From assembly GCA_038319675.1 (NCBI GenBank), contig JBBQDM010000001.1:166457-230456 (forward strand): 64,000 nt of DNA, read 5' to 3'. The first letter of the stretch is position 1, and every line of letters begins with the position of its first letter. The DNA is from Vicinamibacterales bacterium. GTDB lineage: Bacteria; Acidobacteriota; Vicinamibacteria; Vicinamibacterales; SCN-69-37. The position numbers and the translations under genes are program-made. This document shows positions 7,390 to 47,449 of the stretch, piece after piece. Below the pieces are notes generated by a model. That model worked only from the letters and a program-made list of their open reading frames with translations, was not told where the DNA came from and ran no database searches.

Positions 7390-7474
7390 GGCGACGATCC
7401 TATCTGAACTTGAGCCCGACGGGCTGCAGGGGGATGGAGTCGGAGCCGAAAAGACGTGTCTGAGGTTCATCCCC

Positions 7475-8074
7475 ATGAGATATCCCCATCCGTCCGCCGT
7501 TGGTATTGCCCTGCTGCTGGGGCTGCTCGCCGCACCCGCCGTCGTGTCTGCCCAGAGCGTGGCGATTGGGCCCCGCCTGAGCCTGGTCCGCGGTGACCTG
7601 GCGACCGATACTCCCTCGTCCCGGTTGTTCGGCGGCACCATGCGCATGCGCTCGTCGTCGTTCACCGCGCTGGAACTGTCGATGGATTACCGGGTGACCC
7701 ACAACGAGGCCCGCACCGAACGCGTGCGTGAAACACCGATGCAGGCGTCGTTGCTGGTGATGCCCTTCCGGTCGCTGCTGGCTCCGTATGCGCTGGGTGG
7801 TGTGGGGCTGTACTCCAGCAAGGTCGACCTGATGGGCCCCGAAAACGTGATTCTGGACAGCAGTCTGGAGCGGCGCATTGGCTGGCACGCCGGCTTCGGG
7901 GCTGAGCTCAAGCTGGGTCGTCGCGCGGGGGTGTTTCTGGACTACCGGTACCAGTTCATCAACTTCAGTCGCAACGATGATCCTGACGCCGATTCGATCA
8001 TCCCCGGGCTGGAGCGCGTCAAATTCTCGCACCAGGGGTCGATGTGGACCAGCGGGGTCGCGTTCTATTTTTAG
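7475..8074 (+). CDS. Outer-membrane beta-barrel protein (OmpW/OmpA-like porin family)
   Basis: ORF 7388..8074 trimmed to MRYPHPSAVGIALLLGLLAAPAVVSAQS (signal peptide), with GAGG 9 nt upstream. Alternating amphipathic strands. C-terminal WTSGVAFYF ends in an aromatic residue. Confidence 0.7.
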   Translation: MRYPHPSAVGIALLLGLLAAPAVVSAQSVAIGPRLSLVRGDLATDTPSSRLFGGTMRMRSSSFTALELSMDYRVTHNEARTERVRETPMQASLLVMPFRSLLAPYALGGVGLYSSKVDLMGPENVILDSSLERRIGWHAGFGAELKLGRRAGVFLDYRYQFINFSRNDDPDADSIIPGLERVKFSHQGSMWTSGVAFYF

Positions 8075-8128
8075 ACGTCGGGTGTCTTTTTCCGATCTCA
8101 GCGATGCAGAAAAAGACACCCGACGTCT
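8073..8128. terminator. Perfect 19-bp inverted repeat (18-nt loop) between convergent genes; likely intrinsic terminator
   Basis: AGACGTCGGGTGTCTTTTT (8073-8091) pairs with AAAAAGACACCCGACGTCT (8110-8128) with no mismatch. The left arm starts inside the TAG stop of the OMP gene. A T-rich tract (TTCCGATTCTTGTTTT) follows. Confidence 0.7.
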
Positions 8129-24058: not shown

Positions 24059-24601
24059 ATGATCTACTACGTCGCTCTTCTTCGTGGAATCAACGTCGGC
24101 AAGGCCAAGCGGATCTCAATGGAGGACCTCCGAGCCCTGGTCGAACGACTCGGATACGAGGACGTCCGCACGGTGCTCAACACCGGCAATGTGGTCTTCA
24201 AGGGCAAAAAAGCGGCTGAACAGACGATCGCTGATCGCATTCAGGAAGCCCTTGAGATTCGCCACGGCATCGAATCCGTCACCGTCGTGATCACCGCCAC
24301 CGACCTGGATTCGATCATCCGGGAAGACCCACTGAGCAAGGTCGCAACCTCCGATTCCAAACACCTGGTCGGTTTCACCATGGACCAGACGGCGCTGTTT
24401 GCCGCCCGGGCGCTGCCGACCGACGACTTTGGCGACGACACGCTGGCGGTCACCGCCCGCGCCGCCTACATCTGGGCCCCCAAAGGCGTCTCCGCCAGCA
24501 AGGTCTGCAAAGCGGTGGACCGCATCGGTGCCCAGGCCATCACCTGCCGCAACTGGGCCACCCTGCTCAAGATTCAGGCCGCCACCCGCATTCGTGACTA
24601 A
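24059..24601 (+). CDS. DUF1697 family protein
   Basis: 180 aa. MIYYVALLRGINVGKAKRISMEDL is the characteristic DUF1697 N-terminus. Confidence 0.75.
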   Translation: MIYYVALLRGINVGKAKRISMEDLRALVERLGYEDVRTVLNTGNVVFKGKKAAEQTIADRIQEALEIRHGIESVTVVITATDLDSIIREDPLSKVATSDSKHLVGFTMDQTALFAARALPTDDFGDDTLAVTARAAYIWAPKGVSASKVCKAVDRIGAQAITCRNWATLLKIQAATRIRD

Positions 24602-24627
24602 CCAAACCTCTTAGACTTGCGTCAAAT

Positions 24628-24659
24628 GTATTGATAATCAATATACTGATTATCAATAC
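24628..24659. promoter_or_regulatory. 32-bp near-perfect palindrome (30/32), putative PadR operator overlapping the promoter
   Basis: GTATTGATAATCAATATACTGATTATCAATAC ends 1 nt before the padR ATG. It contains the nested palindrome TATTGAT-A-ATCAATA. It is an AT-rich island in GC-rich DNA. Confidence 0.65.
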
Positions 24660-24660
24660 A

Positions 24661-25023
24661 ATGACGAGCCCACAGTCCTTCCTCCCTCTCACACCCTTTG
24701 CCTTCCAGGTGCTGTTGGCTCTCGCCGACGAGGCCAGGCACGGCTACGCCATCATCAAGGAGGTCGAGGAGCGGTCCGGCGGCCAGGTGACCCTCAGGAC
24801 CGGCACGTTGTACACCCTGGTGCAGCGGCTGGTTGACGAATCCCTGGTCGAGGAGGCCCCGGCCCCGACCCTCGCCGCCGGAAAAACCGAAGACAGCCGC
24901 CGGCGGTACTACCAGATGACCCCGCTGGGTCACGCCGTGCTGCGGGCCGAGGCGCTTCGACTTGAAGCACTCATCACACACGCCCGCCGCACCCACGTGC
25001 TGGGCGACACCTCAGGCGCATGA
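24661..25023 (+). CDS. padR: PadR-family transcriptional regulator
   Basis: ORF trimmed to MTSPQSFLPLTPFAFQVLLALADEARHGYAIIKEVEERSGG ... GTLYTLVQRL (winged-helix PadR signature). Confidence 0.85.
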   Translation: MTSPQSFLPLTPFAFQVLLALADEARHGYAIIKEVEERSGGQVTLRTGTLYTLVQRLVDESLVEEAPAPTLAAGKTEDSRRRYYQMTPLGHAVLRAEALRLEALITHARRTHVLGDTSGA

Positions 25024-27623
25024 TGAAGCGACGCCTGCTCGGCCCCGCCTGGCACCCCGACACTGTCGCCACCATTCTCGACGTGTGTGCCGGTGCACGG
25101 CGTCGGCACGGCGTGGTCGGATACGCGCTCGCACTTTTTACCGAGATCACCAACCTTCTTCTCGTCGCGGTTCGCGCACGGTTGGGCGGCCGTACCCCGA
25201 TTACCGGTGGTCTTCCGCCTCCTACTCCCAGGAAAGCAGGCTCAACGATGCCCGCAGTGATACACGATGTGGTGAACGGCTGGAGAAGGATGGTGCGTCA
25301 ACCCCGCGCAGCGCTGGGTGTGATTGCGCTGCTGACGCTGGCGATCGGAGTGGCGTCGGCGATGTTCACGGTTATGGATGCGTTCATCGTGCGTCCTGCA
25401 CCGTTTCGGGAAGCCGACAGGTTGCACAGCCTGTGGCTTCGGGGCAGCGGGGCTCGTCCGAACGTGGCTGCGGCGCGCGCGCTGCGGGATAGCGGTCACT
25501 TTGATGCCGTGCATGCGACGGTCATCAACGCCCGAGCTGAGTTCCTGGGGCCGTCCGGTCCCGACGTTCGAATGGGAGCATGGATTCCGGCGGGCACGTT
25601 TGCCGATCTCGGAGTGTCACCGCTCGTGGGCCGTGAGTTCATCACAGGGGAAGGCACCGAAGGCAACGACGGCTACGTGTTGTTGTCCGAGTCAGTGTGG
25701 CGAGACGTCTTTGAAGCCGACCCTGCGATCGCGGGCAGGACCGTTCAGATGTCCGGCCGACCGACAATTGTCGTGGGAGTGATGCCCGACCGATTGCGAT
25801 TTCCGAACAATGGCGACGGGATGTGGCGTCCCCTCGACCTCGATCGTCCGTCGGCGGCGTCGCAGCAATCCCAGATGTTGTTGTTTGTGCGGCGCACGGC
25901 CGGGATGCCGCTCGCTGACGCCGAGCGCCTGGCCGGAGAGGTTGTGTCGTCGCTTGCCGGCCCGGGTCCTGTGACCGCGACGAGCCGGCCCATGGGCAGC
26001 CAACTCGACGACTATTCCCGTGAGTCTCTCGTGTCGCTGGCCATTGGTGTGGGTCTTGTCTTTGTACTGCTCTGCGCGAATGTCACCAACCTGATTCTTG
26101 CGCGGACAGCGGCCCGGCGTCAGGAGTTCGGCGTCTGCACCGCGCTGGGTGCCTCACGCCTCCGGCTCCTGCGACAAGTGTTGCTCGAGCACCTGGCTGT
26201 GGGCATCACTGCCTCGGTGCTTGGGCTCGGTCTCGCCTATGCCCTGATCGCATTGGCGAACGCGACATTACCTGAGGACCTCTTGTGGCGCACGCTGAAC
26301 ACCCTCGATGTAGACTTCCGTGCCGTGGCCGCCACGTCCGTCATCGGACTCCTTGCGGTGTTGCTGGCAGGGTTGCCGGCCGCGTGGTTCGGCACTCGAA
26401 TCGCGGTGAATGAGTCAATCGGCACATCGCGTGGTGGCACTGACACGCTGGGCAGTCGACGCCTCACGCGCGGCCTGCTTGTGCTGGAAGTGGCCATGGC
26501 CGTGGCCGTGCTTGCGTCTGCCGGCCTTCACGTCCGATCGTTCGTCAACCTCGTGAATGCCGACCGAGGGCTCGACACCGACCGTGTGCTCGTCGCGACA
26601 CTCGCGTTGCCACAGTCAGCCACCGGTGCATCAGCGGCGACGCTCGTCTCGGAAATCGAAACACAGTTGGCCGGTCTGCCTGGTGTCGATCGGGTCAGTC
26701 GCACAGCTCACGTACCACCAGACCTTGGTGCGATGCACTTTGGACTTCAGATGCAGACCGACCTGACACACAGCGAGGTCGTGACACTTGGCCTGCTGCG
26801 CAGTTACCAGGTGCCGGAGGGCTTCTTCGACACGTTTGGCATCCGCATCGTTGACGGCCGTGGGTTTGACGCCGCAGATGATGAACACACGCTCGTGTTC
26901 AGCGAACAGTTGGCGCGTCAACTCTACGGGGACCAGTCACCCGTGGGGCGAACCGTTTCGCTTTGGAAGCGGCAATACCGCGTAGTGGGCGTGGCCACGG
27001 AAATTCGCAATTCCATCACCGAACCTCGCGAAGACCACCCGGAGTTCTACATGCGCTGGACGGCTCCTGTTGATGCCGCTGCGTCCGGCGGCGTGATGAT
27101 GGGGATTCGGTGTGCGGTGCCCTGCGCCTCGCACGCGAGGATCCGCGAGGCCATCACATCGGTGAGCGCAGGCATCGAGGTCACCGCACTTCGTGAACTC
27201 TCCGATGACTTCCTCGAACAACTTGCCAGACCGAAGATGGCGGCCATTGTGGCTGCGGCGTTCTCGGGTCTCGCGCTGCTGGCCACGGCCGCCGGCCTGT
27301 ACGGGGTGCTCGCGTACGCGGTGACTCGGCGTCGTCGTGAGTTTGGCATTCGCGCGGCGCTCGGGGCGCACCCGACTGATCTGCGGCGACTGGTGCTGCG
27401 TGATGGTGTTGCGGTCACTGCGATTGGATTGGTCGTCGGACTCGGCGCTGGGTGGGGCCTGGCGCGATGGCTCGAGTCTGTGCGGTATGGCGTGACGTTC
27501 CTTGACCCGCTCACATGGGGCACGGTCACGCTGACCGTGCTTGTGGTGGCCGTGGCGGCGTCGTGGATGCCGGCCCGTGCCGCCATGCGTGTGGACCCGG
27601 CCGAGATGCTCAGGGATTCGTAG
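25020..27623 (+). CDS. Duplicated FtsX/MacB-type ABC permease (ADOP-type orphan permease)
   Basis: 867 aa. ATGA overlap with padR. Two FtsX-like 4-TM modules separated by large extracytoplasmic domains. No cognate ATPase is adjacent. Confidence 0.8.
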   Translation: MMKRRLLGPAWHPDTVATILDVCAGARRRHGVVGYALALFTEITNLLLVAVRARLGGRTPITGGLPPPTPRKAGSTMPAVIHDVVNGWRRMVRQPRAALGVIALLTLAIGVASAMFTVMDAFIVRPAPFREADRLHSLWLRGSGARPNVAAARALRDSGHFDAVHATVINARAEFLGPSGPDVRMGAWIPAGTFADLGVSPLVGREFITGEGTEGNDGYVLLSESVWRDVFEADPAIAGRTVQMSGRPTIVVGVMPDRLRFPNNGDGMWRPLDLDRPSAASQQSQMLLFVRRTAGMPLADAERLAGEVVSSLAGPGPVTATSRPMGSQLDDYSRESLVSLAIGVGLVFVLLCANVTNLILARTAARRQEFGVCTALGASRLRLLRQVLLEHLAVGITASVLGLGLAYALIALANATLPEDLLWRTLNTLDVDFRAVAATSVIGLLAVLLAGLPAAWFGTRIAVNESIGTSRGGTDTLGSRRLTRGLLVLEVAMAVAVLASAGLHVRSFVNLVNADRGLDTDRVLVATLALPQSATGASAATLVSEIETQLAGLPGVDRVSRTAHVPPDLGAMHFGLQMQTDLTHSEVVTLGLLRSYQVPEGFFDTFGIRIVDGRGFDAADDEHTLVFSEQLARQLYGDQSPVGRTVSLWKRQYRVVGVATEIRNSITEPREDHPEFYMRWTAPVDAAASGGVMMGIRCAVPCASHARIREAITSVSAGIEVTALRELSDDFLEQLARPKMAAIVAAAFSGLALLATAAGLYGVLAYAVTRRRREFGIRAALGAHPTDLRRLVLRDGVAVTAIGLVVGLGAGWGLARWLESVRYGVTFLDPLTWGTVTLTVLVVAVAASWMPARAAMRVDPAEMLRDS

Positions 27624-33842: not shown

Positions 33843-33978
33843 CATTGAGCACTGATCCGGGTTGCATCTTCGGCCGTATTCTGTTCCGATCAAGAGGTTC
33901 TACTTTTTGATCGAGCGGCAATCCCGCGCCCACGCGCGGATGAGTGGGTGCGTGGCCTCTCGTAATTTCCCGAGGCTC

Positions 33979-35658
33979 ATGACGCACACAACATCCGACC
34001 CACTCTCATCACGTTCATCCACCCCTGTCGTGCCGCACCTGGATGTGCTCTGGAAGCGCGCCTACGGCGCCCGCACCCGCGATGACCTGCGCGAACTCTA
34101 CAAGGACTGGGCGGCCACCTACGATGCGGACCACGCTCGTGTCGGGTTCGTCGGACATCAAGTGACCGCCCAGGTGCTGGCCAGACATCTGACGCGCCAT
34201 GATGCCGCTCGCATTCTTGATGCGGGTGCCGGCACCGGTGCTGCGGGTGAAGCCTTGTCGGCACTGGGTTTTACCAACATCGTGGGACTCGATTTGAGCG
34301 AAGACATGTTGGCCGTCGCCGGTGCCAAAGGCGTGTACACACAGGTGATGACCGCCGACTTGTCGTTGCCGGTCGACGCGTTTGGTGTGGACAGTTTTGA
34401 CGCGGCTGTGCTTGTCGGTGTGTTTTCCTACGGTCAGGCGCCGGCCGAAACACTCGACGAAATTGTCCGGCTTGTGCGTCCTGGCGGTGTGGTGGCCTTC
34501 ACCATGCGCACGGACTTCCACACGAAGGACGCCATGGGCGTGCGTTCCAAGATCGAGTCACTCGAACGGCGCGGCATCTGGCGCATGCTCGAAGTCACCG
34601 ACCCAGCGCTGTATCTGCCGAAGAAGGACCCGGACGCGAAGTTTCAGGTGTGGTGTTTCCGGATCACCGGTCACAAGGACGCCGAAGTGGAATCGGGTTT
34701 TGAGGACGCCGTGCGCGAGGCACTCGAGGGTGATGACTGGGTCAAGAAGATCGATCACGCCTGGATCTGGGACTCCACTGCCTCGCGCCTGTACAACCGG
34801 TACACACAGACGTCCGGCTACTACCTGACCGATTGCGAAGAGGAGATCGTGCGCAGTCACGCTGCCGACATTCTCGGTGATGCGCGGCTGATCGTGGAGC
34901 TCGGCTGTGGCTCGGCGCGCAAGGTGTCACACATCCTGCGGGCGGCTGTTGAGCGCGGTGAACGCGTTCGGTACATGCCAATCGACGTGTCGGAGGGGGC
35001 GCTGCGGGCGACTGCCGCCGACGTACGCGCGAAGTTTGGTGATCGCGTTGAGGTGGAGCCTCGTCAGGGTCTGTTTGAGGCGGTGTTGCCGACATTGCCG
35101 GTGGACGTGCCCAAGGTCGTGCTCTTTTTTGGCTCCTCGATCGGCAACCTCGACACGGTGGCAGAGACAGTGACGTTCCTCGAAGGCCTGCGCAGTCGGC
35201 TGCATGCTGCCGACCGATTCGTAGTGGGCGTTGACCTGCACAAGGACCCGGCGGTGCTTGAGGAGGCCTACAACGAAGAGGAAGCCTGTCGCGCCTTCTT
35301 TGTACACATGGTGCGGCGCATCAACGAACACCTCGGTGCTGACTTCGACCCTCGGGTGTTTGCCCTGTCGTCGGTGTACGAAGAAGAGACGCCTGTCGGT
35401 GAGCTGCGCACACGCCGCATGAGTCTGCGCATCGCTCCCACCGAGCCCCAGCGCACCTGGGTGAACACACTCGGCATCGAGGTGTATCTCAAACCCGGTC
35501 AACCGGTGCAGGTGGGCATCTCGCGCAAGTACGAGCCCTCAGGCATCCGTGCGCTGGCGCGTATGGCGTCGTTCGACACACGTCGGCAGTGGCTCGACTC
35601 GCGGCAATGGTTCTCGCTCACGGAATTGGTGCCTGCAGCGACAGAGCCGACGCCGTGA
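33979..35658 (+). CDS. Fusion of a class I SAM-dependent methyltransferase (N-terminal) with an EgtD-like amino-acid N-methyltransferase (C-terminal)
   Basis: ORF trimmed to MTHTTSD (GAGG 3 nt upstream). N-domain ILDAGAGTGAAGEAL (motif I). C-domain LIVELGCGSARK, YMPIDVS, VLFFGSSIGNLD, VGVDLHKD and ISRKY parallel the EgtD/Methyltransf_33 architecture. Confidence 0.7.
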   Translation: MTHTTSDPLSSRSSTPVVPHLDVLWKRAYGARTRDDLRELYKDWAATYDADHARVGFVGHQVTAQVLARHLTRHDAARILDAGAGTGAAGEALSALGFTNIVGLDLSEDMLAVAGAKGVYTQVMTADLSLPVDAFGVDSFDAAVLVGVFSYGQAPAETLDEIVRLVRPGGVVAFTMRTDFHTKDAMGVRSKIESLERRGIWRMLEVTDPALYLPKKDPDAKFQVWCFRITGHKDAEVESGFEDAVREALEGDDWVKKIDHAWIWDSTASRLYNRYTQTSGYYLTDCEEEIVRSHAADILGDARLIVELGCGSARKVSHILRAAVERGERVRYMPIDVSEGALRATAADVRAKFGDRVEVEPRQGLFEAVLPTLPVDVPKVVLFFGSSIGNLDTVAETVTFLEGLRSRLHAADRFVVGVDLHKDPAVLEEAYNEEEACRAFFVHMVRRINEHLGADFDPRVFALSSVYEEETPVGELRTRRMSLRIAPTEPQRTWVNTLGIEVYLKPGQPVQVGISRKYEPSGIRALARMASFDTRRQWLDSRQWFSLTELVPAATEPTP

Positions 35659-36407
35659 TTCGACTCGAGGCCGTCTCCAAGGTGTTTACGCGTCAGGGCG
35701 GTGACCCGGTCACCGCTCTTGACGCGTTGTCTCTCGACATCCGGACCGGTGAAACACTGGCCCTGCTCGGACCCAGCGGATGTGGCAAAACCACCACGCT
35801 GCGACTGCTCAATCGACTCGTTGAGCCCAGCGACGGCCGCATCCTGGTGGGCGACGAAGACACCGCCACGCTTGATCCTGTGCGACTCCGTCGACGCATG
35901 GGGTACGTCGTGCAACGCGGCGGTCTGTTTCCGCACTTGACCGTCGCCCGTAACATTACGCTCCTGCCCGAGTTGGAAGGCTGGACGCGCGAGAGGATGT
36001 CGGCACGGGTCAACGAACTGTTGACACTTGTGCGCCTGCCGCCCGATCAGTTTCGCAACAGGTACCCGGCGGAACTGTCGGGTGGTCAGCAACAACGTGT
36101 CGGCGTGGCACGTGCCCTGGCACTCGATCCGGAATTCCTGCTGATGGACGAACCGTTTGGGGCTCTCGATCCCATCACACGCGCCGAGCTGCAGCAGGAG
36201 TTTCTGGAACTCGACTCCCTGATCGCCAAAACCGTGGTGCTAGTCAGTCACGACCTTGCCGAAGCGTTTTTATTGGGTGATCGCGTCGCGCTGCTCAACC
36301 ACGGTCGCCTGGTGCAGGTGGACACGCCTGATGACCTGCGGCAGCGCCCGGCCTCGGATTGGGTCCGGTCCTTTGTGCAGAGCCAGTTGGCGGATGTGGG
36401 CGCGTGA
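35655..36407 (+). CDS. ABC transporter ATP-binding protein, glycine betaine/osmoprotectant (Opu) type, no CBS tail
   Basis: GTG 35655 overlaps the upstream TGA (GTGA). Walker A GPSGCGKTT, signature LSGGQQQRV, Walker B LLMDEPFGALD. Confidence 0.85.
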   Translation: MIRLEAVSKVFTRQGGDPVTALDALSLDIRTGETLALLGPSGCGKTTTLRLLNRLVEPSDGRILVGDEDTATLDPVRLRRRMGYVVQRGGLFPHLTVARNITLLPELEGWTRERMSARVNELLTLVRLPPDQFRNRYPAELSGGQQQRVGVARALALDPEFLLMDEPFGALDPITRAELQQEFLELDSLIAKTVVLVSHDLAEAFLLGDRVALLNHGRLVQVDTPDDLRQRPASDWVRSFVQSQLADVGA

Positions 36408-37966
36408 TGGCGACGAGGATGCGACACGTGTGGCTCGCCATCGCAGTCGCGCTCTGCGTAGCCACACCTTCCGCACAGACTCCCTCAACCATCGTCATCG
36501 GCAGCAAAAACTTCACCGAGTCGCGCATTCTTGGGGAGATGCTCGCGTTGCTCGTCGAAGACCGCACCGACCTGACGGTGGAACACCGCAGCGGTCTGGG
36601 TGGCACACTTGTGTGTTTTGCGGCCCTGCAGGCCGGCGAGATTGATCTCTATCCCGAATACACCGGCACCGCCTGGTCCATCGTCCTGAAAGAGTCCGGG
36701 CGCATCAGCGATCGGTTGCAGGCGTTCCTGCACGTTGAGCGGCGGTATCGCGAGTTGTATGACCTTGAATGGTTGCAGCCGTTTGGCCTGAACAATACCT
36801 ACGCGCTGGCCATGCGGGAGGACCGCGCCGAGGCGCTGGGTGTGACGACGATCTCGGACTTGGTGGCGCATGCGGGTGAGCTGTCGGCGGGATTCAGCAT
36901 CGAGTTCATGAACCGCGAGGACGGGTGGTCGGGTCTGGGCCCGTTCTACGATCTGTCGCTCGGGCAGGTGCGTGCGCTGGAGCATGGGCTGGCGTATGAG
37001 GCCATCAACGCCGGCAGTATCGATGTGGTTGACGCGTATTCGACCGACGGCAAGTTGCTACGGTACCCGCTGCGGGTGCTGGTGGACGACAAGGGATTTT
37101 TTCCGCCGTACAACGCCGCGACCGTCGTGCGGGGAGATACGCTGCGTGCACACGAAGGTTTGCGTGAGGCTCTCGATGCGTTGGCGTTCCGCATTCCGGA
37201 CGACACGATGATTAGGCTCAACCATGCGGTGGAAGAGGAAGGCCGTGGCTTCCGCGAGGTGGCGCGGGAGTTTCTCGTGGCCGAGGGTCTCCTGGGAGCC
37301 GACGTGGCCCTCACAGATGACGGCACCGCAGACCGGGCGACGTTCGTGGCCTTTCTCCGTGGGCGCTGGAGTGAGACGCTTCGACTGGGATGGCAACATC
37401 TGCAGTTGACGCTGGCGGCCGTGTTGCTGGCGGTGCTTGTCGCGGTGCCGCTGGGTATCGCGATCACGCGCAGCCGAGTGGGCGAACGCATCGCTCTTGG
37501 CACCGCCGGTGTGCTGCAGACAATTCCAAGCCTCGCGCTGCTCGCCTTCATGATTTCAGTGCCCGGTCTCGGCCTCTCCGTCACCTCGGCCATCGTCGCG
37601 CTCTTTTTGTATGCGGTGTTGCCGATTCTGCGCAATACCCATACGGGACTCAACAGCGTAGACCCGGAGTTGCTGGATGCCGCGCGTGGGATGGGCCTCA
37701 CGCCTCGACAGATGTTGTTCCGCGTGCAATTGCCGATGTCGCTGCGCACGATCATGGCCGGCGTACGAACTGCGACCGTGATCAGCATCGGCGTCGCGAC
37801 GCTCGCGGCGTTCATTGGGGCGGGTGGTCTCGGCGAGCCAATCGTCACCGGCCTCTATCTCAACGACACGTGGTTGATTCTATCGGGTGCCATACCTGCG
37901 GCCGCGCTGGCACTCGCGGCTGATGCGTTGCTGGGTCGCATCGAGAAACGCTGGATGACTCACTAG
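36407..37966 (+). CDS. Fused osmoprotectant substrate-binding domain (N-terminal) and ABC permease (C-terminal)
   Basis: The ATG overlaps the upstream TGA (TGATG). Signal/anchor MATRMRHVWLAIAVALCVATPSAQ. OpuAC-type SBP motifs IGSKNFTES and YPEYTGT. C-terminal BPD-type permease (EAA-like loop DAARGMGLTPRQ). Confidence 0.8.
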   Translation: MATRMRHVWLAIAVALCVATPSAQTPSTIVIGSKNFTESRILGEMLALLVEDRTDLTVEHRSGLGGTLVCFAALQAGEIDLYPEYTGTAWSIVLKESGRISDRLQAFLHVERRYRELYDLEWLQPFGLNNTYALAMREDRAEALGVTTISDLVAHAGELSAGFSIEFMNREDGWSGLGPFYDLSLGQVRALEHGLAYEAINAGSIDVVDAYSTDGKLLRYPLRVLVDDKGFFPPYNAATVVRGDTLRAHEGLREALDALAFRIPDDTMIRLNHAVEEEGRGFREVAREFLVAEGLLGADVALTDDGTADRATFVAFLRGRWSETLRLGWQHLQLTLAAVLLAVLVAVPLGIAITRSRVGERIALGTAGVLQTIPSLALLAFMISVPGLGLSVTSAIVALFLYAVLPILRNTHTGLNSVDPELLDAARGMGLTPRQMLFRVQLPMSLRTIMAGVRTATVISIGVATLAAFIGAGGLGEPIVTGLYLNDTWLILSGAIPAAALALAADALLGRIEKRWMTH

Positions 37967-38925
37967 GCCCAGTACGCCTGCCCCCTGGGCTTGGCGATGA
38001 TCATCGGCTTGAGGAAATCGATGGCTTTGCGCAGGCCTTCGTCTGGCGCCATCAGACTGTCTTCGTGTTCGATGCTGACGACGTGGTCGTAGCCGACCAT
38101 GCGGAGGGTGGAGATGATGTCCTTCCACACCAGGGCGTCATTGCCGTAGCCGACCGTGCGGAAGATCCAGGAGCGCTCGAGTTCGCGGGTGTAGTTCTTT
38201 GCGTCGAGCACGCCGTTGAGCCGAGTGTTGGCCGCGTCGATGCGGCAATCCTTGGCATGCACGTGGAAGATACGTTCGCCGAGCGCCTTGATGGACGCGA
38301 CCGGATCTGACTGCTGCCAGAAAAGGTGGCTCGGGTCGAAGTTGCAGCCAATGGTCTTGGGTGCGATGGCCGAGAGGCGCAGCATTGTGTCGGTGTTGTA
38401 CGCCACGAAGTTTGGGTGCATCTCGATGGCCACGCGGACACCCGCGGACTTGCAGATTCTTGCGGTGTCGGTCCAGTAGGGAACGACCCGCTCCTTCCAC
38501 TGCCATTCAAGCGCCTGTGCAAACTCCGGCGGCCACGGCGACACGATCCAGTTCGGCTGTGTCGCTTTGGCGTCCCCCCCGGGGCACCCGCTGAACGTGA
38601 TCACCGTGCGCACATCGAGCTGTTCAGCCAGTGCCACGGTCTTGAGGAACGCCTCATGGTGCGCCCGCGCGATCTTCCTGTCGGGATGCAGCGAATTGCC
38701 GTGGCAGCTCAGCGCGCTGATCGTCAGGTTGCGCTGCTCAACGGCACTCCTGAACTCACGCAACCGTTTGGCGCTCGATAGCAGCTGTGCCGGCTTGCAG
38801 TGGGCATCCCCAGGATACGCGCCGCACCCAATCTCGATCGCCTCAAGCCCGAGCGACGCCACATAGTCGAGCGTCTCCTCAAACGGCTTGTCGCCAAACA
38901 ACACCGCAAACACACCAAGCTTCAT
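37963..38925 (-). CDS. Sugar phosphate isomerase/epimerase (xylose isomerase-like TIM barrel)
   Basis: 320 aa. MKLGVFAVLFGDKPFEETLDYVASLGLEAIEIG is a typical N-terminus. GGAGGGAG lies 7 nt upstream of the ATG. Confidence 0.8.
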   Translation of the reverse strand: MKLGVFAVLFGDKPFEETLDYVASLGLEAIEIGCGAYPGDAHCKPAQLLSSAKRLREFRSAVEQRNLTISALSCHGNSLHPDRKIARAHHEAFLKTVALAEQLDVRTVITFSGCPGGDAKATQPNWIVSPWPPEFAQALEWQWKERVVPYWTDTARICKSAGVRVAIEMHPNFVAYNTDTMLRLSAIAPKTIGCNFDPSHLFWQQSDPVASIKALGERIFHVHAKDCRIDAANTRLNGVLDAKNYTRELERSWIFRTVGYGNDALVWKDIISTLRMVGYDHVVSIEHEDSLMAPDEGLRKAIDFLKPMIIAKPRGQAYWA

Positions 38926-38940
38926 CTGTTTACTCCCTCC

Positions 38941-39004
38941 GTACGGAGCAGACGGACTTTAGTCCGTCTGGTGTCCGACGGGCTGAAGCCCGTCGGCTCC
39001 GTAC
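38941..39004 (-). other. Intercistronic three-way-junction element (three perfect 8-9 bp helices)
   Basis: P1 is GTACGGAGC (38941-49) with GCTCCGTAC (38996-39004). The first hairpin is AGACGGAC-ttta-GTCCGTCT (38950-69). The second is CCGACGGGC-tgaa-GCCCGTCGG (38975-96). There are no mismatches. It ends directly at the SD of the downstream cistron. Confidence 0.65.
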
Positions 39005-39023: not shown

Positions 39024-40145
39024 CTATACCGTGACCCATCGACGACTCTTGGCCGCCCGCTCGATCGCGTGCAGCACGCGCTGGTTCGCGACGCCGTCGA
39101 CAAAGTTCGGCGTCGGGATCGTGTGCGCCGCAATGGCTTCGACCAGGTCGTACACCGTGTGCACAAACGTGTGTTCGTAGCCGAGGATGTGGCCGGGCGG
39201 CCACCACTTGCCCACAAACGGATGTGTGGGTTCGGTGACCATGATCGTGCGGAAGCCACGCAGGTGCGGCGGGTCGTTCTCGAAGTAGACCTCGAGTTCA
39301 TTAAGCCGTTCGAGGTTGAAGGCAATGCTGCCGAGTCGGCCGTTGATCTCGAAGCGGTTGTAGTTTTTTCGGCCAGGCGCCATGCGCGTCGCTTCGATGG
39401 TGCCGACCGCACCGTTCGCGAAGTGGACAAGCGCTATGGCGGCATCATCAACCGTGACTGTACGTTTGGTGCGCGGTTTACCTGCTTCAGAACGCACCGG
39501 CACAAATGTCGTGAGGTCGGCTGTCACCTCGGTGATCTCACCCACAAGGAACCGTGCGAGATCGATGGAGTGTGACGCAATATCCCCCAGCGCGCCGGAG
39601 CCGGCCTTGGTACGATCCAGGCGCCAGTTGAACGGGGCGGCCGGGTCTGACATCCAATCCTGCAGGTAGGTGCCGCGGTAGTGTCGAATCTCGCCGAGTT
39701 GGCCGGCCGCGATGATCTGTCTCGCGAGCTGCACAGCGGGGGCGCGGCGATAGTTGTGGCAGATCATGTGCGCCACGCCGGCCTTCTCAACGGCGGCGAG
39801 CATGCGCTCGGCATCCTTGAGTGAGTTGGCGAGTGGCTTCTCGCAGAACACGTGTTTGCCGGCCTTTGCCGCGGCGATGGCGATGTCAGCGTGACTGTCG
39901 CCTGGCGTACACACGTCCACCAGTTCGATGTCCTTGCGCCGGATGACGTCTTTCCAGTCGGTGGCGGCCTCTTCCCACCCGAGTGCCTGGCGCGCCGCCT
40001 CAACACCGCGTGGGTCGCGGCCGCAGATCACCTTCATGCGTGGAGCACGGGTCGGTGAAAAAAACGGGCCCACCTGGCGGTACGCATTCGAATGGGCTCG
40101 GCCCATGAAGGCGTAGCCGATCAGAGCGACGTTGATGTCACTCAC
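39024..40145 (-). CDS. Gfo/Idh/MocA-family oxidoreductase (cytoplasmic, no signal)
   Basis: 373 aa. [22 protein letters not shown] Rossmann N-terminus. GTG start overlaps the stop of the cytochrome c gene (GTGA). Confidence 0.85.
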
Positions 40146-40564
40146 TGTTTCTCCGGTTTGAGCCGCGTATCAAACGCCCGCACGTGTTTGGCGAGAGCCG
40201 TAATCTGCTCCGGCTTCAGCTTGCCCTTGAATGGCATCATCGGCGTACCTTTCACGCCCTCGGCAATGACCTTTGCCATCTGCACCGATGCCGTGCCGTG
40301 TTTCCAGTCGCGCCCCACAAAGGCCATTTCCGGCAACGGGGCCTTGCCGTTGGCGCCATGGCACACCTGGCAGTGCAACTTGTAGAGCGCGGCGGCATCA
40401 ATCTTCGGGGCCTGGGCACGGTGGATGGGGAGGTGAGGAGATGAGGAGATGAGGAGATGAGGAATGGGAATTGTGGTTGGCGCTGCTGCGCGCAGGGTCA
40501 TGGCCCCCGCCAGCGCGACAATTCCGAGACCTGTCACTACCATCCTGAAAACCACTGTAGACAT
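40142..40564 (-). CDS. Membrane-anchored/secreted mono-haem c-type cytochrome
   Basis: ORF 40142..40933 trimmed to [21 protein letters not shown] because the remainder is antisense to the giant gene. Haem motif CQVCH. Distal Met in GTPMMPF. Confidence 0.75.
40427..40466 (-). repeat. 8-nt tandem repeat (3 perfect and 2 degenerate copies of GAGGAGAT) inside the cytochrome c linker
   Basis: Perfect copies are at 40435-40458. On the coding strand this reads CCTCATCT x3 and encodes [11 protein letters not shown]. Confidence 0.8.
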
Positions 40565-40681
40565 TGAACCTATTGTGACATCCCCGGAGCGTAGCCAACC
40601 CGGGACTCCTGTGCTGACCCAATGGACATTAGGCGACTTTAGGTACATACTCTCTTCGCTCTCATTACAGATTGGTACCCT

Positions 40682-43600
40682 ATGATGCAACTCCCCCCGG
40701 TAAGTGTGCAGTCCTCCGCTCGTGTACGCCCATTTGCCAGCCTGGTCGCCCTGTGCGGCGCCCTGTTCCTTAGTGCCGTATGGCCGTCGGCGCAATCTCC
40801 CGATCCGGGGCTGGGTCTGGTCGTTGGGCGGAACGTCAACATGGTGTCCGGGCAGACGCTGCCCGGTGGCGATCCCTACCTGCAGCGGCAGAACGAGCCC
40901 TCGGTGGCGGCCTCGACGCGAAACCCGCTGCACTTGTTGGCCGGGGCCAACGACTACCGGACCGTCGACATCCCTGGGAACTTCGATGATGGCGAGACGG
41001 GGGATGCGTGGCTCGGGGTGTTCAAATCTTTTGACGGTGGTGAGCGGTGGCAGAGCACGCTGTTGCCGGGCTACCCGCAGGACACCTCGCCGCAGGGCAT
41101 GGCATCGCCGCTGAAGGCGTATAGCGCGGGTGCTGACCCCGTGGTGCGTCCGGGCACCAACGGTCTGTTGTATTACGCGGGCCTCGCATTCAACCGCGGC
41201 GAAGGTGGCGCCAGCGCCATTTTTGTCTCGCGGTTTGTCGACAACAACAACAAGGAAAACGGCGACCCGATCGCGTACATCTCCACCTCGGTGGTGGCCA
41301 GTTCCACGGGTGCCGGGTTCCTCGACAAACCGTGGTTGGCCGTGGACGTACCACGCGCCGGGGCGACGGTGTGCCGCATCACGACCGAGGCGCCCACGCG
41401 TCAGGTCTCGGCCGCCGCACCATCATCCCCATCGACGGGTAAGGGGGCCAGCGGCGCGGCGGTGTCTGCAGCGGCCGGCACCATTAAGGAGACCCGCACG
41501 ACGAAGGGCACCCCCACGGTATTGCCGACACCCGGGATCGCGAAGCAGACCTCCATCACCCAGCAGGTGCTGGCCGGCGCGATGTATGTGGCCTACGCCC
41601 AGATCACCACCACGCACCTGGCGACGGGCGAGACCGACATCGAATCCCGGATTATGTTTTCGCGCTCGGATGACTGCGGCGTGACCTGGACGACGCCCGT
41701 GCGCATCAGCGACCCGTCGCACAAGGTGAATCAGGGTGCCACGATCGCCGTCGACCCTGCCACGGGTGTGGTGCATGTGGCGTGGCGGCAGTTCGGCCTC
41801 GATGACGCGTCCCCCGACGCGATCATGACCGTGGTCCCCACGGTGACGGCTGTGACGTCCGGACCCGGAAGGAATGCCCGGTCCACGCCCACCCAGCGAA
41901 AGCCCACAAAAGTGCACGAATTCAAGGCCGGTCCGAAGGCCGACGCGATTCGGCCCAAGCTCCAGCGCGCGCATCGGCACGGGGACGTGAACGAACTGGT
42001 GTCGATTCGCCCGTTTGACTCGGGCACGACGGAAGATCGCTTCCGCACCAACGCGTATCCCACCATCGCGATCGACGATGAGAGCCGCGTGTATCTGGCG
42101 TGGACAGAGCGGGGATTTGGTGGCGCCAGGTCTGATCCACTCATTGGTGACGCCCGCATCGTGCTGACGACGTCTCGTCAAGGTGGCTTCTGGACGACAC
42201 CACGCGCCGTGGATTCCCAGCCTGACGGCACGGATTTGCCCGGTCACCAGATGATGCCGTCGATGTCGTATTCGGGCGGTCGGTTGCTGCTTGTGTACTA
42301 CGACCTTCGTGAGGACGTCTCGCGCGTCTTCGGGCCGTTTGTGTCTGAGCGGGATGCGATCTCGCAGGGCCGGCGTCACACGATCGACGTGCGTGCCGTG
42401 CAGGCCACCAAGGGGGATGTGCCGGCGTTTGGTCCGTCCACGATGGTGTCGCAGTATCTGATCGGCAACCTGCGCGGCGCGGGTGGCATCGAGCCCCAGC
42501 AGTTGCAGTTCAACGCACCCAATCTGCCGCTGTTCCAGCTCGGCACGGTGCCCTTCATGGGCGACTATATCGACATCGCCCCGGCGCCGGCGTTTGTTCA
42601 GGACGCGGGCGGCCGGTGGATCCACAACACAGCCACCACGTCCGCGCCGGTGTTCCACGCCGTGTGGACCGACAATCGCGATGTCCGGAAGCCGATCGAT
42701 GGTGATTGGAAAAACTACACGCCGCCTGGCGGCGCCTCCTGCATCGACGGGCAGACGGGCATGCGCAACCAGAACGTGTACTCCGCGCGTCTGACGATGG
42801 GTCTCGTCGCCGGATCTCCTGGCAACTCGAAGCCACTCAGCACAGACACCCCGCGTGGGTTTGTCGTGTTCGCGCAGAATCTGACGTATCAGACAAAGGC
42901 GTTCCGCCTCACGATCGAGAATCAGCCCGTCGGTGGGAACGCGTCGTTCGCCCAGCTCGGCCTGGCCACCCCTGCTCCCCTGCTGCTTTCTGTCGACGTG
43001 AAGGTGGCTCCGCGGTCGATGGTGACCCGGACCGTCTATGCGACGTCCACCAACGCCAAAGATCAGGTGCGTGTCTCGGTGACTGAGGTCGGCGTGGCTG
43101 ACTTCCTCCCCATCGACGGGGGACTCGCGACAACGGTGATCCTCAATCCGGATATTTCAAACCCGGATATCTCGAACCCGGATATCTCGAACCCCGACAT
43201 CTCGAACCCGGATATCTCAAATCCGGATATCTCGAACGCCGAGGTCTACAACCCCGATATTTCCAATCCGGACATTTCCAATCCGGACATTTCGAACCCG
43301 GATATCTCGAACCCGGATATTTCCAATCCCGATATCTCGAACGTGCTCATTGCCAATCCGGATATCTCGAATCCTGACATTTCGAACCCGGATATCTCGA
43401 ATCCTGATATCTCCAACCCGGATATCTCGAATCCAGACATCTCCAACCCCGACATTTCGAACGGGTCCCTGACTGATGTGACGTGGACGATCCGGAACGG
43501 CGGCAACACGACCGCCGCGTTCAACGTGGACCTCTTTATCGCGAATCAGGCGGCCGCAGCTGGCGGTATCAAGACGCAACTGGTCGTGCACAAGACCTAC

Positions 43601-46600
43601 AAGACGCCGGTCTCCGACGGGTGTGTGCTGAAGACCGAGGCGCACACGGTGCTCGTGGCCAACGTGCTGAATCCCACGTTCAAGACGGTCGGCGACGATA
43701 CGACGTTTGATCCGGCGAACCCCGACATCTCGAACACGACGTTGTGGCTCGAACCCGGCGGCGAAGGGAAGATCACGCTGCGCATCGTGGACCCGGATCC
43801 AACCGATGCCTTCTCAATCAATCCAGTCACGGACGTGACGCCCGTGGTGCAGTCGCTGGCGGTGAACACCGAGACGCTCGCCGACCCGATGCCCGAACCG
43901 CCGGCCACACCGGCGCCGACTGACCCGCAGCCGGTGCCTGCGACGATGCTCACGTTTGTCGCGCAGCCTGTGGATACGCTGGCGGGCGGGCCAATGGCCC
44001 CGGTTACAGTGAGCGCCTTCGCTGGCCTCAACCCCGCGCCAGGCGTGCAGGTCACCCTCGCGATCGCGATCAATCCATCCGGGGGCAAGCTGTCAGGGAT
44101 CGTCACGACACTCACCGACGCTGCAGGCCTGGCGACGTTTGCCGGCTTGTCGATCGATCGCGATGGGGCCGGCTACCGGCTTTCAGCGTCTGCCAGCGCG
44201 GCCGGCGCGCTGCCGGTGCTGTCGAATGCCTTCGCAGTCGGCGTGGTGGCGCCGCCTCCGCCTCCGCCTCCGCCGGCCACGAACTGGTCTGCGAACGGCG
44301 ACGGCATCGTCGTGCTGACGGACAACGGGGCCGTCGGCGGCACGCCGCGCATGACCTATCAGCGCAACGGCATCCCCAACTTCACCGGCGCATGGACGTT
44401 GTCCACCGTCGCGGCGGCCACCGGACCGGTGCGGCTCGACTGGGAGTGGACCGGGCTGCACTCCTACTGTGCGGCTGGCGTCCAGCTCCAGTCCTTCGTC
44501 AACCGCGCAGGCAATGATGTCTTTGTGGGCCCGCTGCTGCAACTGACTGACAACTGTGTCGGCGCCCGCAACCCAAGCGCTGGCTTTGCATTCGCCGGCG
44601 TCACGTCGGTGGCGGTGCAGGCTGGCGACACCTACGGATTCCGGCTGAACGGAAGCCACGGTGATGGCAGCTACATCCTGGAGGGCGCCTTTGGCGCAGT
44701 CGTGAATGGCGCGACGTCGGCGAGTCCGTTTGTCGTGACCAACGCCTCGGACGGAGGTCCGGGTTCCCTGCGTGCGGCGCTGATCGAGGCGAACGTTGCG
44801 GCGGATCTGAACACGATCACCTTCGCCATCCCGGGACCGTGGCTGCACACCATTGCGCCAGCCACCCCACTGCCCGTGATCACGAACCCTGTGATCATCG
44901 ACGGTCTGTCGCAGCCGGGCTCGCTCTCGATGGCGCCGATGGTGAACCTCGATGGCCGGTTCATGCTGAATTTTGTCTCCGACAATAATGACGACCTGCC
45001 GGGAACAAACATCGGCCTGGCCCCTGGCTTTGAAGTGGTTGCGTCGGACGTGACCATTCGCGGTCTCGGCATCAACCGATTCCCGGGACCTGGCGTGTAT
45101 GTGAACAACGGCACGAACAACGTGCGCGTTGAAGACAACGCTATCGGTGCCGGACGTGCCGGTGTGCAGACGTGGCCCGCCAACAACGTTGGTGTCCACT
45201 TGAACTACAGCACCAATCACGTGATTGCGCGCAACGTGATTTCCTCGTCAGAGACATCCGGCATCTTGATCGCCGGTGGGTCGGGCTCGTTGATTACGGG
45301 AAACCGAATCGGCACGAGCGCGGACGGGCTGACGGCCCTGCCGAATCTTGACAACGGCATCACGCTGTTCGACGGTGCGACGGCAACGATCATCGACGGC
45401 AACCTGATCTCCGGCAACGGTACGGTCGGTGGCGCGAACGGCTTTGGCATCGACATCCAGCAGTCGGGTCTGCTGGCCGAGGTGACGGGCACGCTGATTC
45501 AAGGCAACACGATCGGCCTTGATGCTGCGGGGAACGTTCTGCGGCGGAGCGCGACCGATATCATCGGCCCCGCAAGTCAGGCGAATGAAAATCTCGGCCC
45601 GCTTGCGCGTGGTAATACCGGTGGCGGCATTCGACTCAACCGTGCGTCAGGCACGGTGATTGGTGGCGTGGCGGGATCGCCGAACACGATTTCTGGCAAC
45701 GGCGGCTATGGAATTGTGATCGTCGGCGCGCAGGCAGGAGCGGCGCCCCGCATCGTCGGTAACTACATCGGCACCGGTCCCACCGGAGCGGGAATCGCGG
45801 CCAATGTCGGGCGCGGGATCAGCGTGCAGGGGGCGGCCGCTGTCATCGGCGCCCCTGGAGTCGAGAACCGCAACATCATCTCCGGGAACCTCGGTGATGG
45901 CATCTTCTCGAACGGCAACACGGTGATCGAGAACAACTTTATCGGGACCGACAGCACCGGCACGATTGCACAGGGGAACGCGCGACTCGATGACTTCGGC
46001 CCAACGCTGACACTTGGCTGCTGTCATGTCGGCGTGTTTGTCACCGCGCCGAACAACGTCGTTCGCAACAACCTGGTGTCAGGGCAGGTGCGCGGGGGCG
46101 GTATCCGGAGTGGTGGCGCGCTCGGTGCCATCGCGAATCTGATTGAGAACAACAAGGTCGGGACCGACGTGACCGGCACCTTGCCGCTGCCCAATGGCGG
46201 TGGGATTGGCCTCTACGGGGATCGATCCGGAACTTGGGTGCGCGGCAACCTCATTGCCTTTAATCCCAATGGGGGAATTGGCATGTTCGAGGGCACGCAG
46301 GGTGCGCTGATCGGCGGTCTCGCTCCCGGGGACGGCAATACCATCGTCAACAACGGAGACGGTGTGCAGGTTGGCTACAACGCCGGACAACTGGCTGATC
46401 TGGGCAACCGAATCTGGTCGAACTCGATTTACAACAACCTGGGGCTTGGCATCGATCTGTCGAGGAACAGCGTGACCGTCAATGACGCCAATGACGGAGA
46501 TGTTGGGCCTAACGGGCAACAGAACTTCCCCGTGCTGAGCAATGTCACGAACAACGGTGTGGTCACCACCGTGGACTACCTGCTGGACAGCCAGCAGATC

Positions 46601-47445
46601 AACGCGAATCACACGATCCAGATTTTCGCGAGCGCGTCCTGCGATGCCAGTGGCTTTGGTGAGGGTGAACGATTGGTCGGGTCATTCATTCAGCAGAGCA
46701 ACGGCTCGGGCGACATGGTGGTCGTCGGAGCCGCACTCACCGAGATGGTGCCCGCAGGGCAGTTCCTGACCGCGACGGCGACCGACGGCAACGGCAATAC
46801 GTCGGAGTTCTCGCAGTGTGTGCAGGTCCAGGCCGGCGTCACGATTACGTCGGCATCCCCGGCGAACGGGGCACCGAACGAAGGCTTCATGGTGTTTCGC
46901 GGCGCGAACCTGCCAGCCGGCGTTGGCGATGTGGTCGCGGAGGTGTCCAACGGGGTCACGACGATGAACGGCTTCTGGTTCGCCAGTCCGTCGTCGCCGA
47001 CCGCAGGGTATGTGCGGTTACCCGGCATGCCGCTCGGGGCCGCCACCGTCCGGTTGCGCAACAACGCGGGCACCATCGTGTCGAACGCATTTCCAATCAC
47101 GATCACGGCCGTGCCTGGCACGCCGGTGATCACGGCGATTCGAGACGGCAACATGAACGTCGTGGCTACGCCGGTCCCGGCTGGCACTACGATCTACGTC
47201 GTGGCTGACGGTATCGACACTTTAGGAGCGGTGGTGCGCTTCACGCAGGGCGCCAATACGTGGGATGTCACTGGTATTGCAACGTCCAGCGCCGCCATCG
47301 GGCTGGCACTGGAAGTGAACCTGCCCGGTGTCGCCTCAGCCGGACCGATTGATGTGAGCATCCGCCAGGGCGCGAGTAACTTCAGTGCCACGGTGACGAT
47401 TCAAGTGGCGGCAGCGCCGACGGTCTCCGGTCCGACGGGTACTCG

Positions 47446-47449
<4 letters not shown>
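40682..47449 (+). CDS. Giant secreted multidomain protein: BNR/sialidase-like propeller, PDISN pentapeptide array, Ig-like domain, CSLREA-type parallel beta-helix, IPT/TIG-like C-terminus
   Basis: 2255 aa. Signal peptide ending PSAQS. Asp-box motifs SFDGGERW (41027-41050) and SDDCGVTW (41666-41689). NPDIS array. P8 linker (about 44254-44277). GGPGSLRAALIEAN then many NxxIxGN beta-helix turns. TATATDGNGNTSEFS. Two C-terminal beta-sandwich modules. Confidence 0.85.
43145..43459 (+). repeat. 21 in-frame 15-nt units; 19 encode NPDIS, plus NAEVY (unit 7) and NVLIA (unit 14)
   Basis: Read directly. The units differ only at synonymous third positions (aat/aac, ccg/ccc/cct/cca, gat/gac, att/atc, tca/tcg/tcc). 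An orphan copy lies at 43718-43732. Confidence 0.95.

Follow-up and report, generated by a model that had tools for sequence, protein, structure and literature searches.

A three-helix element beside a Shine-Dalgarno sequence in a Vicinamibacterales operon is probably an inverted dimer of REP-type units

The hallmark of REP elements is the tetranucleotide GTAG followed by a short palindrome (PMC3733652). Published degenerate forms of this tag vary at positions 2 and 3 (GYAG, GYRG, GTRG and GTMG), and a G at position 2 is not listed among them. Most REPs lie 3' of genes, where the flanking ORFs are co-directional or convergent, and heterodimers of units with different stems are common (PMC3733652). 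In the paired arrangement termed 'HH dimers', two units have their GTAG ends outside, and the partners may fold on their own or jointly into one large stem-loop (Di Nocera et al. 2013, PMC3733652). Two further groups of repeats bear on the locus described here. REPs flanking subclass 2.7 RAYT (TnpA-REP) genes in Ignavibacterium album have the sequences GTAG-GACAGAC-TTTA-GTCTGTC and GTAG-GACAGGC-TTCA-... (Quentin et al. 2018, PMC6006769, Table S1), and hairpins with a 'CnGA foot', which occur around class 3 Y1 (HUH) transposase genes, number about 600 copies in Solibacter usitatus (PMC6006769).

The window, a 64-kb stretch of a contig from a soil acidobacterium that homologues of its TIM-barrel protein place in the order Vicinamibacterales (Acidobacteriota), contains a 64-nt element (38941..39004, minus strand) that is interpreted here, with a probability of roughly 0.8, as an inverted dimer of two REP-type units with their tags outside, similar to an HH dimer or REPIN and recently acquired at this site. 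The element lies between a GFO/IDH/MocA oxidoreductase gene (39024..40145, minus strand; TAG stop at 39026-39024) and a xylose-isomerase-like TIM-barrel gene (sugar phosphate isomerase/epimerase; 37963..38925, minus strand), the last gene of the unit, which is convergent with an OpuAC/permease gene (36359-37966, plus strand). Upstream, a cytochrome c ORF (40142..40933, minus strand) overlaps the oxidoreductase start by 4 nt. A 19-nt spacer separates the oxidoreductase stop from the element. On its other side, in mRNA sense, the element abuts the Shine-Dalgarno (SD) sequence of the TIM-barrel gene, GGAGGGAG (38933..38940, minus strand), which lies 7 nt 5' of the ATG (38925-38923); the sequence directly 3' of the element is thus GGAGGGAG-TAAACAG-ATG. 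The original prediction had described a mismatch-free three-helix element of 64 nt in a 98-nt gap between two co-oriented genes of a three-gene operon, and a 12-nt palindrome at its edge. Each of these points was borne out: all three genes are on the minus strand, the intergenic gap measures 98 nt, the sequence and fold are as described, and the palindrome CTCCGTACGGAG is present at 38937-38948.

Read on the mRNA strand, the element starts with the 5' arm of a closing helix, GTACGGAG (38997..39004), in which GGAG (39000-38997) stands in the register of a tag. This arm is followed by unit 1, the hairpin CCGACGGGC-TTCA-GCCCGTCGG (38975..38996), the junction ACAC (38971..38974), unit 2, the inverted hairpin CAGACGGAC-TAAA-GTCCGTCTG (38949..38970), and the 3' arm of the closing helix, CTCCGTAC (38941..38948), whose CTCC is the complement of the unit 2 tag. 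The closing helix comprises 8 bp, and each 22-nt hairpin unit consists of 9 bp and a 4-nt loop, with zero mismatches in any of the three helices. This fold is both the minimum free energy and the centroid structure, at -45.0 kcal/mol and 82% of the ensemble, compared with a mean of -19.2 +/- 3.2 kcal/mol in dinucleotide shuffles (z = -7.95; 0 of 200 as good), and it is retained when the element is folded in 116-nt and 179-nt contexts. The three-helix fold is far beyond chance. A structural scan for two perfect hairpins and a closing helix, covering about 1.4 Mb of examined DNA, found stems of 8-9 bp to be almost confined to the element's relatives: the sole other match of that size was a low-complexity G/C-run artefact, and the remaining matches had 6-7-bp stems and unrelated sequences.

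The same 64 nt also constitute an inverted repeat of two 28-nt arms, 86% complementary, around an 8-nt centre, so that the hairpins represent a single unit present twice, in inverted orientation. This inverted repeat over the whole element did not figure in the original prediction. Between unit 1 and unit 2, two base pairs have changed in a compensated way and one base of the loop is different, and the loops on the mRNA strand read TTCA in the first hairpin and TAAA in the second. Because the units are palindromic and mutually inverted, two folds are available, a double hairpin closed by the tags or one long imperfect hairpin. The long hairpin is 3.5 kcal/mol worse than the three-helix fold with RNA parameters (-41.5 versus -45.0 kcal/mol), and DNA parameters also rank the three-helix fold first (-27.1 versus -22.3 kcal/mol).

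These features resemble HH dimers (PMC3733652) and REPINs (Bertels and Rainey 2011, PMC3116915) in several respects: short palindromes in inverted orientation with tags outside and a separation of a few bases, the choice between separate and long-hairpin folding, extragenic sites that mostly follow coding sequences, compensated stem differences in heterodimers, and presence/absence variation between relatives. The window copy itself is a close inverted pair of short palindromic stem-loops at a co-directional site after a gene, as in REPs, but the bases 5' of the unit are GGAG instead of an unpaired GT[AG]G. The tag of the window subfamily thus differs from that of HH dimers and REPINs, and the survey of REPs (PMC3733652) lists no such family for Acidobacteria. 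Points that count against the REP reading include the single copy in the 64 kb, a tag of GGAG in place of the defining GT[AG]G and the small number of GGAG-tagged copies recovered.

The layout of a unit is tag, 2 bp, GACGG(G/A)C, TT(C/T)A and complement. Its 7-bp core and 4-nt TTTA/TTCA loop are shared with the REPs of subclass 2.7 RAYT genes, the cores differing by a single compensated base pair (GACGGAC versus GACAGAC, and GACGGGC versus GACAGGC). Read on the plus strand, unit 2 is GACGGAC-TTTA-GTCCGTC, one base pair away from the I. album repeat GTAG-GACAGAC-TTTA-GTCTGTC, and one metagenome copy (L145, 2605-2652) carries the GACAGGC core. The window element differs from the subclass 2.7 repeats in that its stem is longer by 2 bp, its tag is GGAG and no RAYT gene was found nearby.

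Relatives of the element were sought in metagenomes with a pattern that specified nothing but the two 7-bp hairpin cores; three stem positions, both loops, the spacer and the flanks could vary. At least 120 loci, mostly from soil, were recovered, corresponding to 125 distinct places among the matches listed. In 94 of these 125 places, each of the three unconstrained stem positions proved complementary to its partner. Of the 94, 62 had TTCA and then TGAA in the unconstrained loops, and 81 had a closing helix of at least 4 bp that was no part of the pattern; at random positions of the same contigs the figure for such a helix was 20%. The commonest unit core and loop among the matches listed, GACGGGC-TTCA-GCCCGTC, is that of unit 1. 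The two-unit inverted arrangement is common to all 82 well-formed dimers among the matches listed, and these 82 fall into 79 different, unrelated flank contexts; they therefore represent a dispersed repeat family and not one orthologous regulatory site sampled repeatedly. Four contigs (L120, L144, L145 and L213) carry two copies each, and at least seven contigs of one sample carry copies.

The metagenome family bears the REP tag. In the scanned loci, among the matches listed, the tetranucleotide 5' of the maximally extended stem was GTAG in 115 of 200 units, and in 41 more the G of GTAG was taken into the stem, bringing GTAG to about 78% of the 200. The window units have GGAG in exactly the register of this GTAG, that is, tag, 2-bp stem extension, 7-bp core and 4-nt loop, as is seen when the metagenome unit GTAG-GC-GACGGGC-TTCA-GCCCGTC-GC is set against the window unit GGAG-CC-GACGGGC-TTCA-GCCCGTC-GG. 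Gene contexts among the matches listed were 15 convergent, 20 co-directional and 3 divergent, counts that rest on heuristic gene calls (ORFs filtered by codon-position GC) under which about 10 of the 82 elements, the window copy included, were wrongly flagged as lying within an ORF. The median distance from stop codon to element was 22 nt among the matches listed, compared with 19 nt for the co-directional window copy. These contexts agree with the published distribution of REPs (PMC3733652).

A second scan, of genomes, identified relatives that carry the window's tag. Its pattern, CGGAGC plus hairpin, specified 18 bases and was too loose: most of the at least 96 rows returned were chance matches in GC-rich genomes, and the real ones among the matches listed were L014, L023, L042 and L077. 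The same three-helix element with a CGGAG/CTCCG closing helix occurs in a Solibacteraceae MAG (L014) and in two Vicinamibacterales MAGs (L023 and L042) among these matches, while L077 is a half copy at a second place in the same Solibacteraceae MAG as L014. L042 belongs to the same assembly as a relative of the window locus, L001, whose TIM-barrel protein is 90% identical. The GGAG subfamily thus comprises at least four full copies, the window copy included, and at least one half copy, in four assemblies. The scan fixed CGGAGC on one side and left the tag of the partner unit free, and in every copy listed this free tag was again GGAG or GGAAG, the elements ending in CTCC(G) or CTTCCG. A search of viral contigs for the GGAG-type dimer gave 0 matches.

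The GGAG-tagged copies sit beside genes unrelated to the window operon (the neighbours of L014, L023 and L042 include isocitrate/isopropylmalate and malate dehydrogenase genes and FHA and metallo-beta-lactamase genes). Each of these relatives follows a stop codon at a distance of 3-6 nt. Among them, one lies between convergent genes, and L042 is co-directional, ahead of an SD sequence and ATG. When the GGAG-tagged set was aligned, 93.8% of cells were paired, compared with 28-40% in slid controls, and 6 of 26 pairs had changed on both sides, a compensatory pattern that RNA selection, ssDNA selection and arm-to-arm conversion produce indistinguishably in a DNA palindrome.

The ends of these copies bear on whether the element could be a MITE that a DDE transposase moves; the closing helix would then supply its terminal inverted repeats, and TA, GTAC or GTACGGAG would be the target-site duplication. 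The inverted repeats are indeed perfect, and GTACGGAG, found at the 5' end, recurs over the 3' boundary. However, L014, L023 and L042 have no flanking direct repeat, so that the GTACGGAG repeat is not reproduced. All GGAG-tagged relatives keep the inner GGAG/CTCC, the outer GTAC occurs in the window copy alone, and the conserved terminal motif of the family at large is GTAG. At 64 nt, the element is also below the typical length of a MITE. A MITE origin is therefore very improbable.

Further copies of the element were sought throughout the 64-kb window. No second copy was found there by matching the full pattern with as many as 3 mismatches allowed, by a degenerate hairpin pattern or among all perfect hairpins, and fuzzy matching to five unit consensi (up to 3 mismatches) added none. 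Hairpins with a GTAG- or GGAG-like tag were not enriched in the window (7, compared with 2-11 in shuffles). The 11-mer at 7416-7426, to which attention had been drawn as a recurrence of part of the element, does exist, but it is not a second copy: it has no hairpin or palindrome around it and was rejected as a chance match. Near-matches to this 11-mer in the window number 10, two of them being the element itself, compared with 4.2 +/- 2.0 expected, a count compatible with chance.

Three readings had been offered for the element at the outset: a cis-regulatory switch, a processing or stability element, and a REP-like repeat. The last is upheld by the recurrence of the same architecture in at least 79 unrelated flank contexts and by the GTAG tags. 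The switch falls under refuting conditions named in the original prediction itself, the element being dispersed. It had been proposed that CUCC in the 3' arm pairs either with the distal 5' arm, leaving the SD free, or with the adjacent GGAG, occluding it, and so controls translation of the TIM-barrel gene. The palindrome CTCCGTACGGAG and the position of the element against the SD gave this proposal its appeal. In a 179-nt mRNA context, however, the closing helix has pair probabilities of 0.96-0.98 and the CUCC:GGAG pairing that would mask the SD has a probability of 0.0014; the SD bases come out as largely unpaired in the prediction (probability 0.61-0.98), and the long-hairpin alternative leaves them equally free. 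The junction between the units, which would be the ligand pocket of such a switch, is conserved in neither length nor sequence, ranging from 0 to 12 nt across the family among the matches listed. In L042, the other co-directional copy ahead of an SD, the SD lies 12 nt from the element and does not abut it.

The distribution of the element also speaks against a switch. The genes beside the copies are unrelated to one another and frequently convergent, and the copies occur either way round. The order of the two hairpins relative to the gene that ends beside the element was 27 one way and 24 the other among the matches listed; this lack of orientation bias is not the behaviour of a strand-specific RNA regulator. 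The element is, in addition, absent from the orthologous junction of relatives whose TIM-barrel proteins are 90-95% identical (L234, L235, L236 and L001). A search of the whole window against Rfam at gathering thresholds matched no family. In E-value mode the region gave only sub-threshold matches to miRNA-precursor hairpins (best 31 bits, against a threshold of 72 bits), because the long-hairpin alternative fold was detected. The likeness to three-way-junction riboswitches is thus limited to the outline as drawn, a junction of three helices beside an SD; unlike them, the element has no conserved junction bases, position or orientation, no competing expression-platform fold and no Rfam match.

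An intrinsic terminator or attenuator between the two genes was also considered, as the element places stable GC-rich hairpins just 3' of a stop codon. No U-tract follows it, however, the next sequence being GGAGGGAGUAAACAG; a consensus promoter/terminator scan called nothing at the element; and an SD and ATG stand immediately downstream. Given the pairing probabilities, the free SD, the absence of a U-tract and the variable junction, the switch and the terminator are both rejected as hardly credible.

The history of the junction was reconstructed from orthologous oxidoreductase/TIM-barrel junctions in members of the TIM-barrel protein's 90% cluster, and the identities given here refer to that protein. 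In the 99.4% relative (L233; GCA_027624085.1), the spacer and element are identical to those of the window. In the 95.3% relatives (L234 and L235), both the element and the spacer are missing, and the two genes share an ATGA overlap. The 93.8% relative (L236) also lacks the element and has a spacer with a different GTAG-tagged hairpin, GGCGCGC-TGAGCTTGA-GCGCGCC, whose family has two more copies within 5.3 kb. In the 90% relative (L001), the element is again absent and a 34-nt spacer contains AACGACC-TCAGA-GGTCGTT, the stop codon TAG being part of its GTAG. A rearranged 90% relative (L225-L232) has GTAG-CGCGTCGCG-GTTTCA-CGCGACGCG after the TIM-barrel gene. The element is therefore polymorphic for presence and absence at its orthologous site, as REPs are. 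The spacers of the window and L001 (98 and 34 nt) differ in length by exactly the 64 nt of the element; a clean insertion was nevertheless rejected, because beyond an SD-proximal part that aligns in register the spacer is unalignable, leaving the equal length suggestive only.

These sequences show a junction occupied time and again by different REP-type hairpins, the window dimer being a recent, lineage-specific acquisition. Such turnover is expected of REPs and is the opposite of what a conserved regulator would show. The presence of other small hairpins at the same junction in relatives, together with the extreme stability of the structure, could also be read as an intercistronic stabiliser or processing hairpin that evolved locally, is peculiar to this operon and belongs to no mobile or dispersed family. 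Against this stand the near-identical units and the same dimer architecture at 79 or more unrelated contexts, and the GTAG that precedes the stem in the relatives' same-site hairpins too, which indicates repeated occupation by repeats rather than local evolution. Local evolution is thus unlikely, and the inverted REP-type dimer is retained as the best explanation of the element. On this explanation the 64 nt are ordinary DNA, either junk-like or with a mild effect on expression, and do not encode a new regulatory RNA.

An ORF scan for HUH...Y transposase motifs in six frames, covering the window and all examined loci, gave no credible match; the sole motif match, in an unrelated Streptomyces locus, was judged to be due to chance. 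No class 3 transposase gene was seen in the window or the examined loci either. The element has points in common with the class 3 repeats of S. usitatus: the host phylum is Acidobacteria in both cases, and CGGA (39001-38998), one base earlier than GGAG, fits a 'CnGA foot', the sequence running CGGA-G-CCG... with its first 8 nt (CGGAGCCG) identical to the repeat CGGAGCCGCGACCGTAAGGGAGCG. It differs from them in that class 3 structures are weak, interrupted hairpins, whereas each hairpin in the window element has a stem of 9 perfectly paired bp and is of the GTAG-REP type. As a tentative and rather doubtful proposal, the double hairpins with a GGAG tag in Vicinamibacterales and Solibacteraceae might represent an undescribed REPIN lineage in which the guide has shifted from GT[AG]G to GGAG or to a CnGA foot (CGGA). 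If so, there would have to be a cognate enzyme, either a RAYT or a class 3 Y1 transposase, that recognises its guide differently, and GGAG would be a natural variant for studying how RAYTs read the guide tetranucleotide if that transposase exists. Moreover, GGAG and CUCC mimic SD and anti-SD sequences, and insertions beside start codons, such as the one in the window, could then have been co-opted to tune translation initiation.

A plausible course of events for the REP-type dimer can be proposed. The copy occupies a spacer that formed between the oxidoreductase gene and the TIM-barrel gene recently in the history of this Vicinamibacterales lineage. If GTAG REPs are a guide, a RAYT-type HUH/Y1 transposase recognising the tag may have copied the units in the form of ssDNA hairpins (PMC3733652, PMC6006769, PMC3116915). 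As no HUH/Y1 transposase ORF was found in the window or the examined loci, this mobilisation step is put forward purely as an analogy. Selection, or the copying process itself, would keep each hairpin perfectly paired, which would explain the compensated differences between the arms. The copy would then be transcribed within the cytochrome c - oxidoreductase - TIM-barrel mRNA.

An effect on expression may be envisaged from intercistronic REP/BIME elements of Escherichia coli and Salmonella, which at malE-malF protect the upstream mRNA from 3' exonucleases and give differential expression within the operon. Both systems have a REP cluster between co-transcribed genes; the window element differs in belonging to another sequence family, and a search of the literature on REP and mRNA stability found nothing specific. 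By this analogy, a stable structure 19 nt after the oxidoreductase stop codon might stall 3'-to-5' exonucleases and so favour the upstream cistrons. The 98-nt spacer would also replace the ATGA coupling seen in the 95% relative, making TIM-barrel initiation independent, at an exposed and strong SD. At most, then, the element possibly acts as a barrier at the mRNA 3' end and decouples two cistrons. The locus provides a clean natural comparison of the effect of a REP dimer on an operon, between the ATGA-coupled relative and the 98-nt spacer with its dimer here.

The main value of these results is a correction: a regulatory-looking three-way junction beside an SD is in this case the expected fold of an inverted REP dimer. 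They also document a REP-type family in Vicinamibacterales and Solibacteraceae MAGs, along with a closely related and much larger set in mostly soil metagenome contigs. REP-type families are little described in this phylum, and the GGAG tag is mildly unusual. A minor observation concerns the cytochrome c gene: the protein is called at 125-169 aa in relatives, and the true start of the window's cytochrome c gene probably lies downstream of 40933.

GTAG-tagged hairpins also occur around the TIM-barrel gene in relatives. L236, the relative's locus whose TIM-barrel protein is 93.8% identical to that of the window, carries a GTAG-tagged hairpin family unlike that of the window dimer, with three copies within 5.3 kb (81-103, 3647-3669 and 3698-3720), one of which occupies the orthologous counterpart of the junction that holds the dimer. 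The stems of this family are GGCGCGC / GGCCCGC and its 9-nt loops are TGAGCTTGA / TCAAGTTCA. In L001, another locus bearing a TIM-barrel homologue, positions 5962-5986 show a small hairpin with GTAG one base 5' of it, and the oxidoreductase gene takes its stop codon, TAG, from this GTAG. In loci L225-L232, from a further relative, the gene order is rearranged to TIM barrel, cytochrome c, oxidoreductase, and GTAG-CGCGTCGCG-GTTTCA-CGCGACGCG comes after the TIM-barrel gene (3474-3501 in L226).

Among the metagenome contigs matched by the double-hairpin core scan (L105-L224), the inverted repeat of the commonest GTAG-tagged subfamily generally reaches far past the tag, in the form ACAT-NNNN-GTAG ... 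CTAC-NNNN-ATGT (for example, L120, 881-933 and 4002-4054). This extension argues for a predicted mobile unit of about 75 nt in that subfamily, not about 53 nt. Four of the contigs carry head-to-tail tandem arrays of 23-30-nt units with GACGG...CCGTC hairpin-like cores (L176, 6758-6856, with a period of 27 nt; L169, 5068-5131; L137, 9967-10010; and L135, 1046-1093). These arrays differ from the inverted dimers and could represent either REP clusters or repeats within coding sequence.

In the window, the cytochrome c ORF (40142-40933, minus strand) is overlapped in its 5' quarter by a plus-strand ORF of 2255 aa (40682-47449) with beta-helix/NosD-like and extensin-like stretches. Because cytochrome c is annotated at 125-169 aa in relatives, its true start probably lies downstream of 40933, and the gene would then be a divergent neighbour of the one encoding the 2255-aa product. 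On the other side, a fused OpuAC substrate-binding/permease gene (36359-37966, plus strand) is convergent with the TIM-barrel gene, with a 4-nt overlap, and a nearby gene (33862-35658, plus strand) encodes two fused methyltransferase domains, one of them histidine-specific (Methyltransf_33, EgtD-like). The genes around here point to metabolism of the betaine or ergothioneine type.

Two other palindromes lie elsewhere in the window. A perfect 20-bp inverted repeat (8073-8128; arms AGACGTCGGGTGTCTTTTTC / GAAAAAGACACCCGACGTCT, spacer 16 nt) sits a short way beyond the stop of a minus-strand ORF (8156-9454) and may be a bidirectional terminator-like structure. A 34-nt near-palindrome (24627-24660; TGTATTGATAATCAATA|TACTGATTATCAATACA), AT-rich in a GC-rich genome, is flanked by an ORF (24059-24601) and a MacB/FtsX-type permease gene (25020-27623), both on the plus strand, and looks like a transcription-factor operator.
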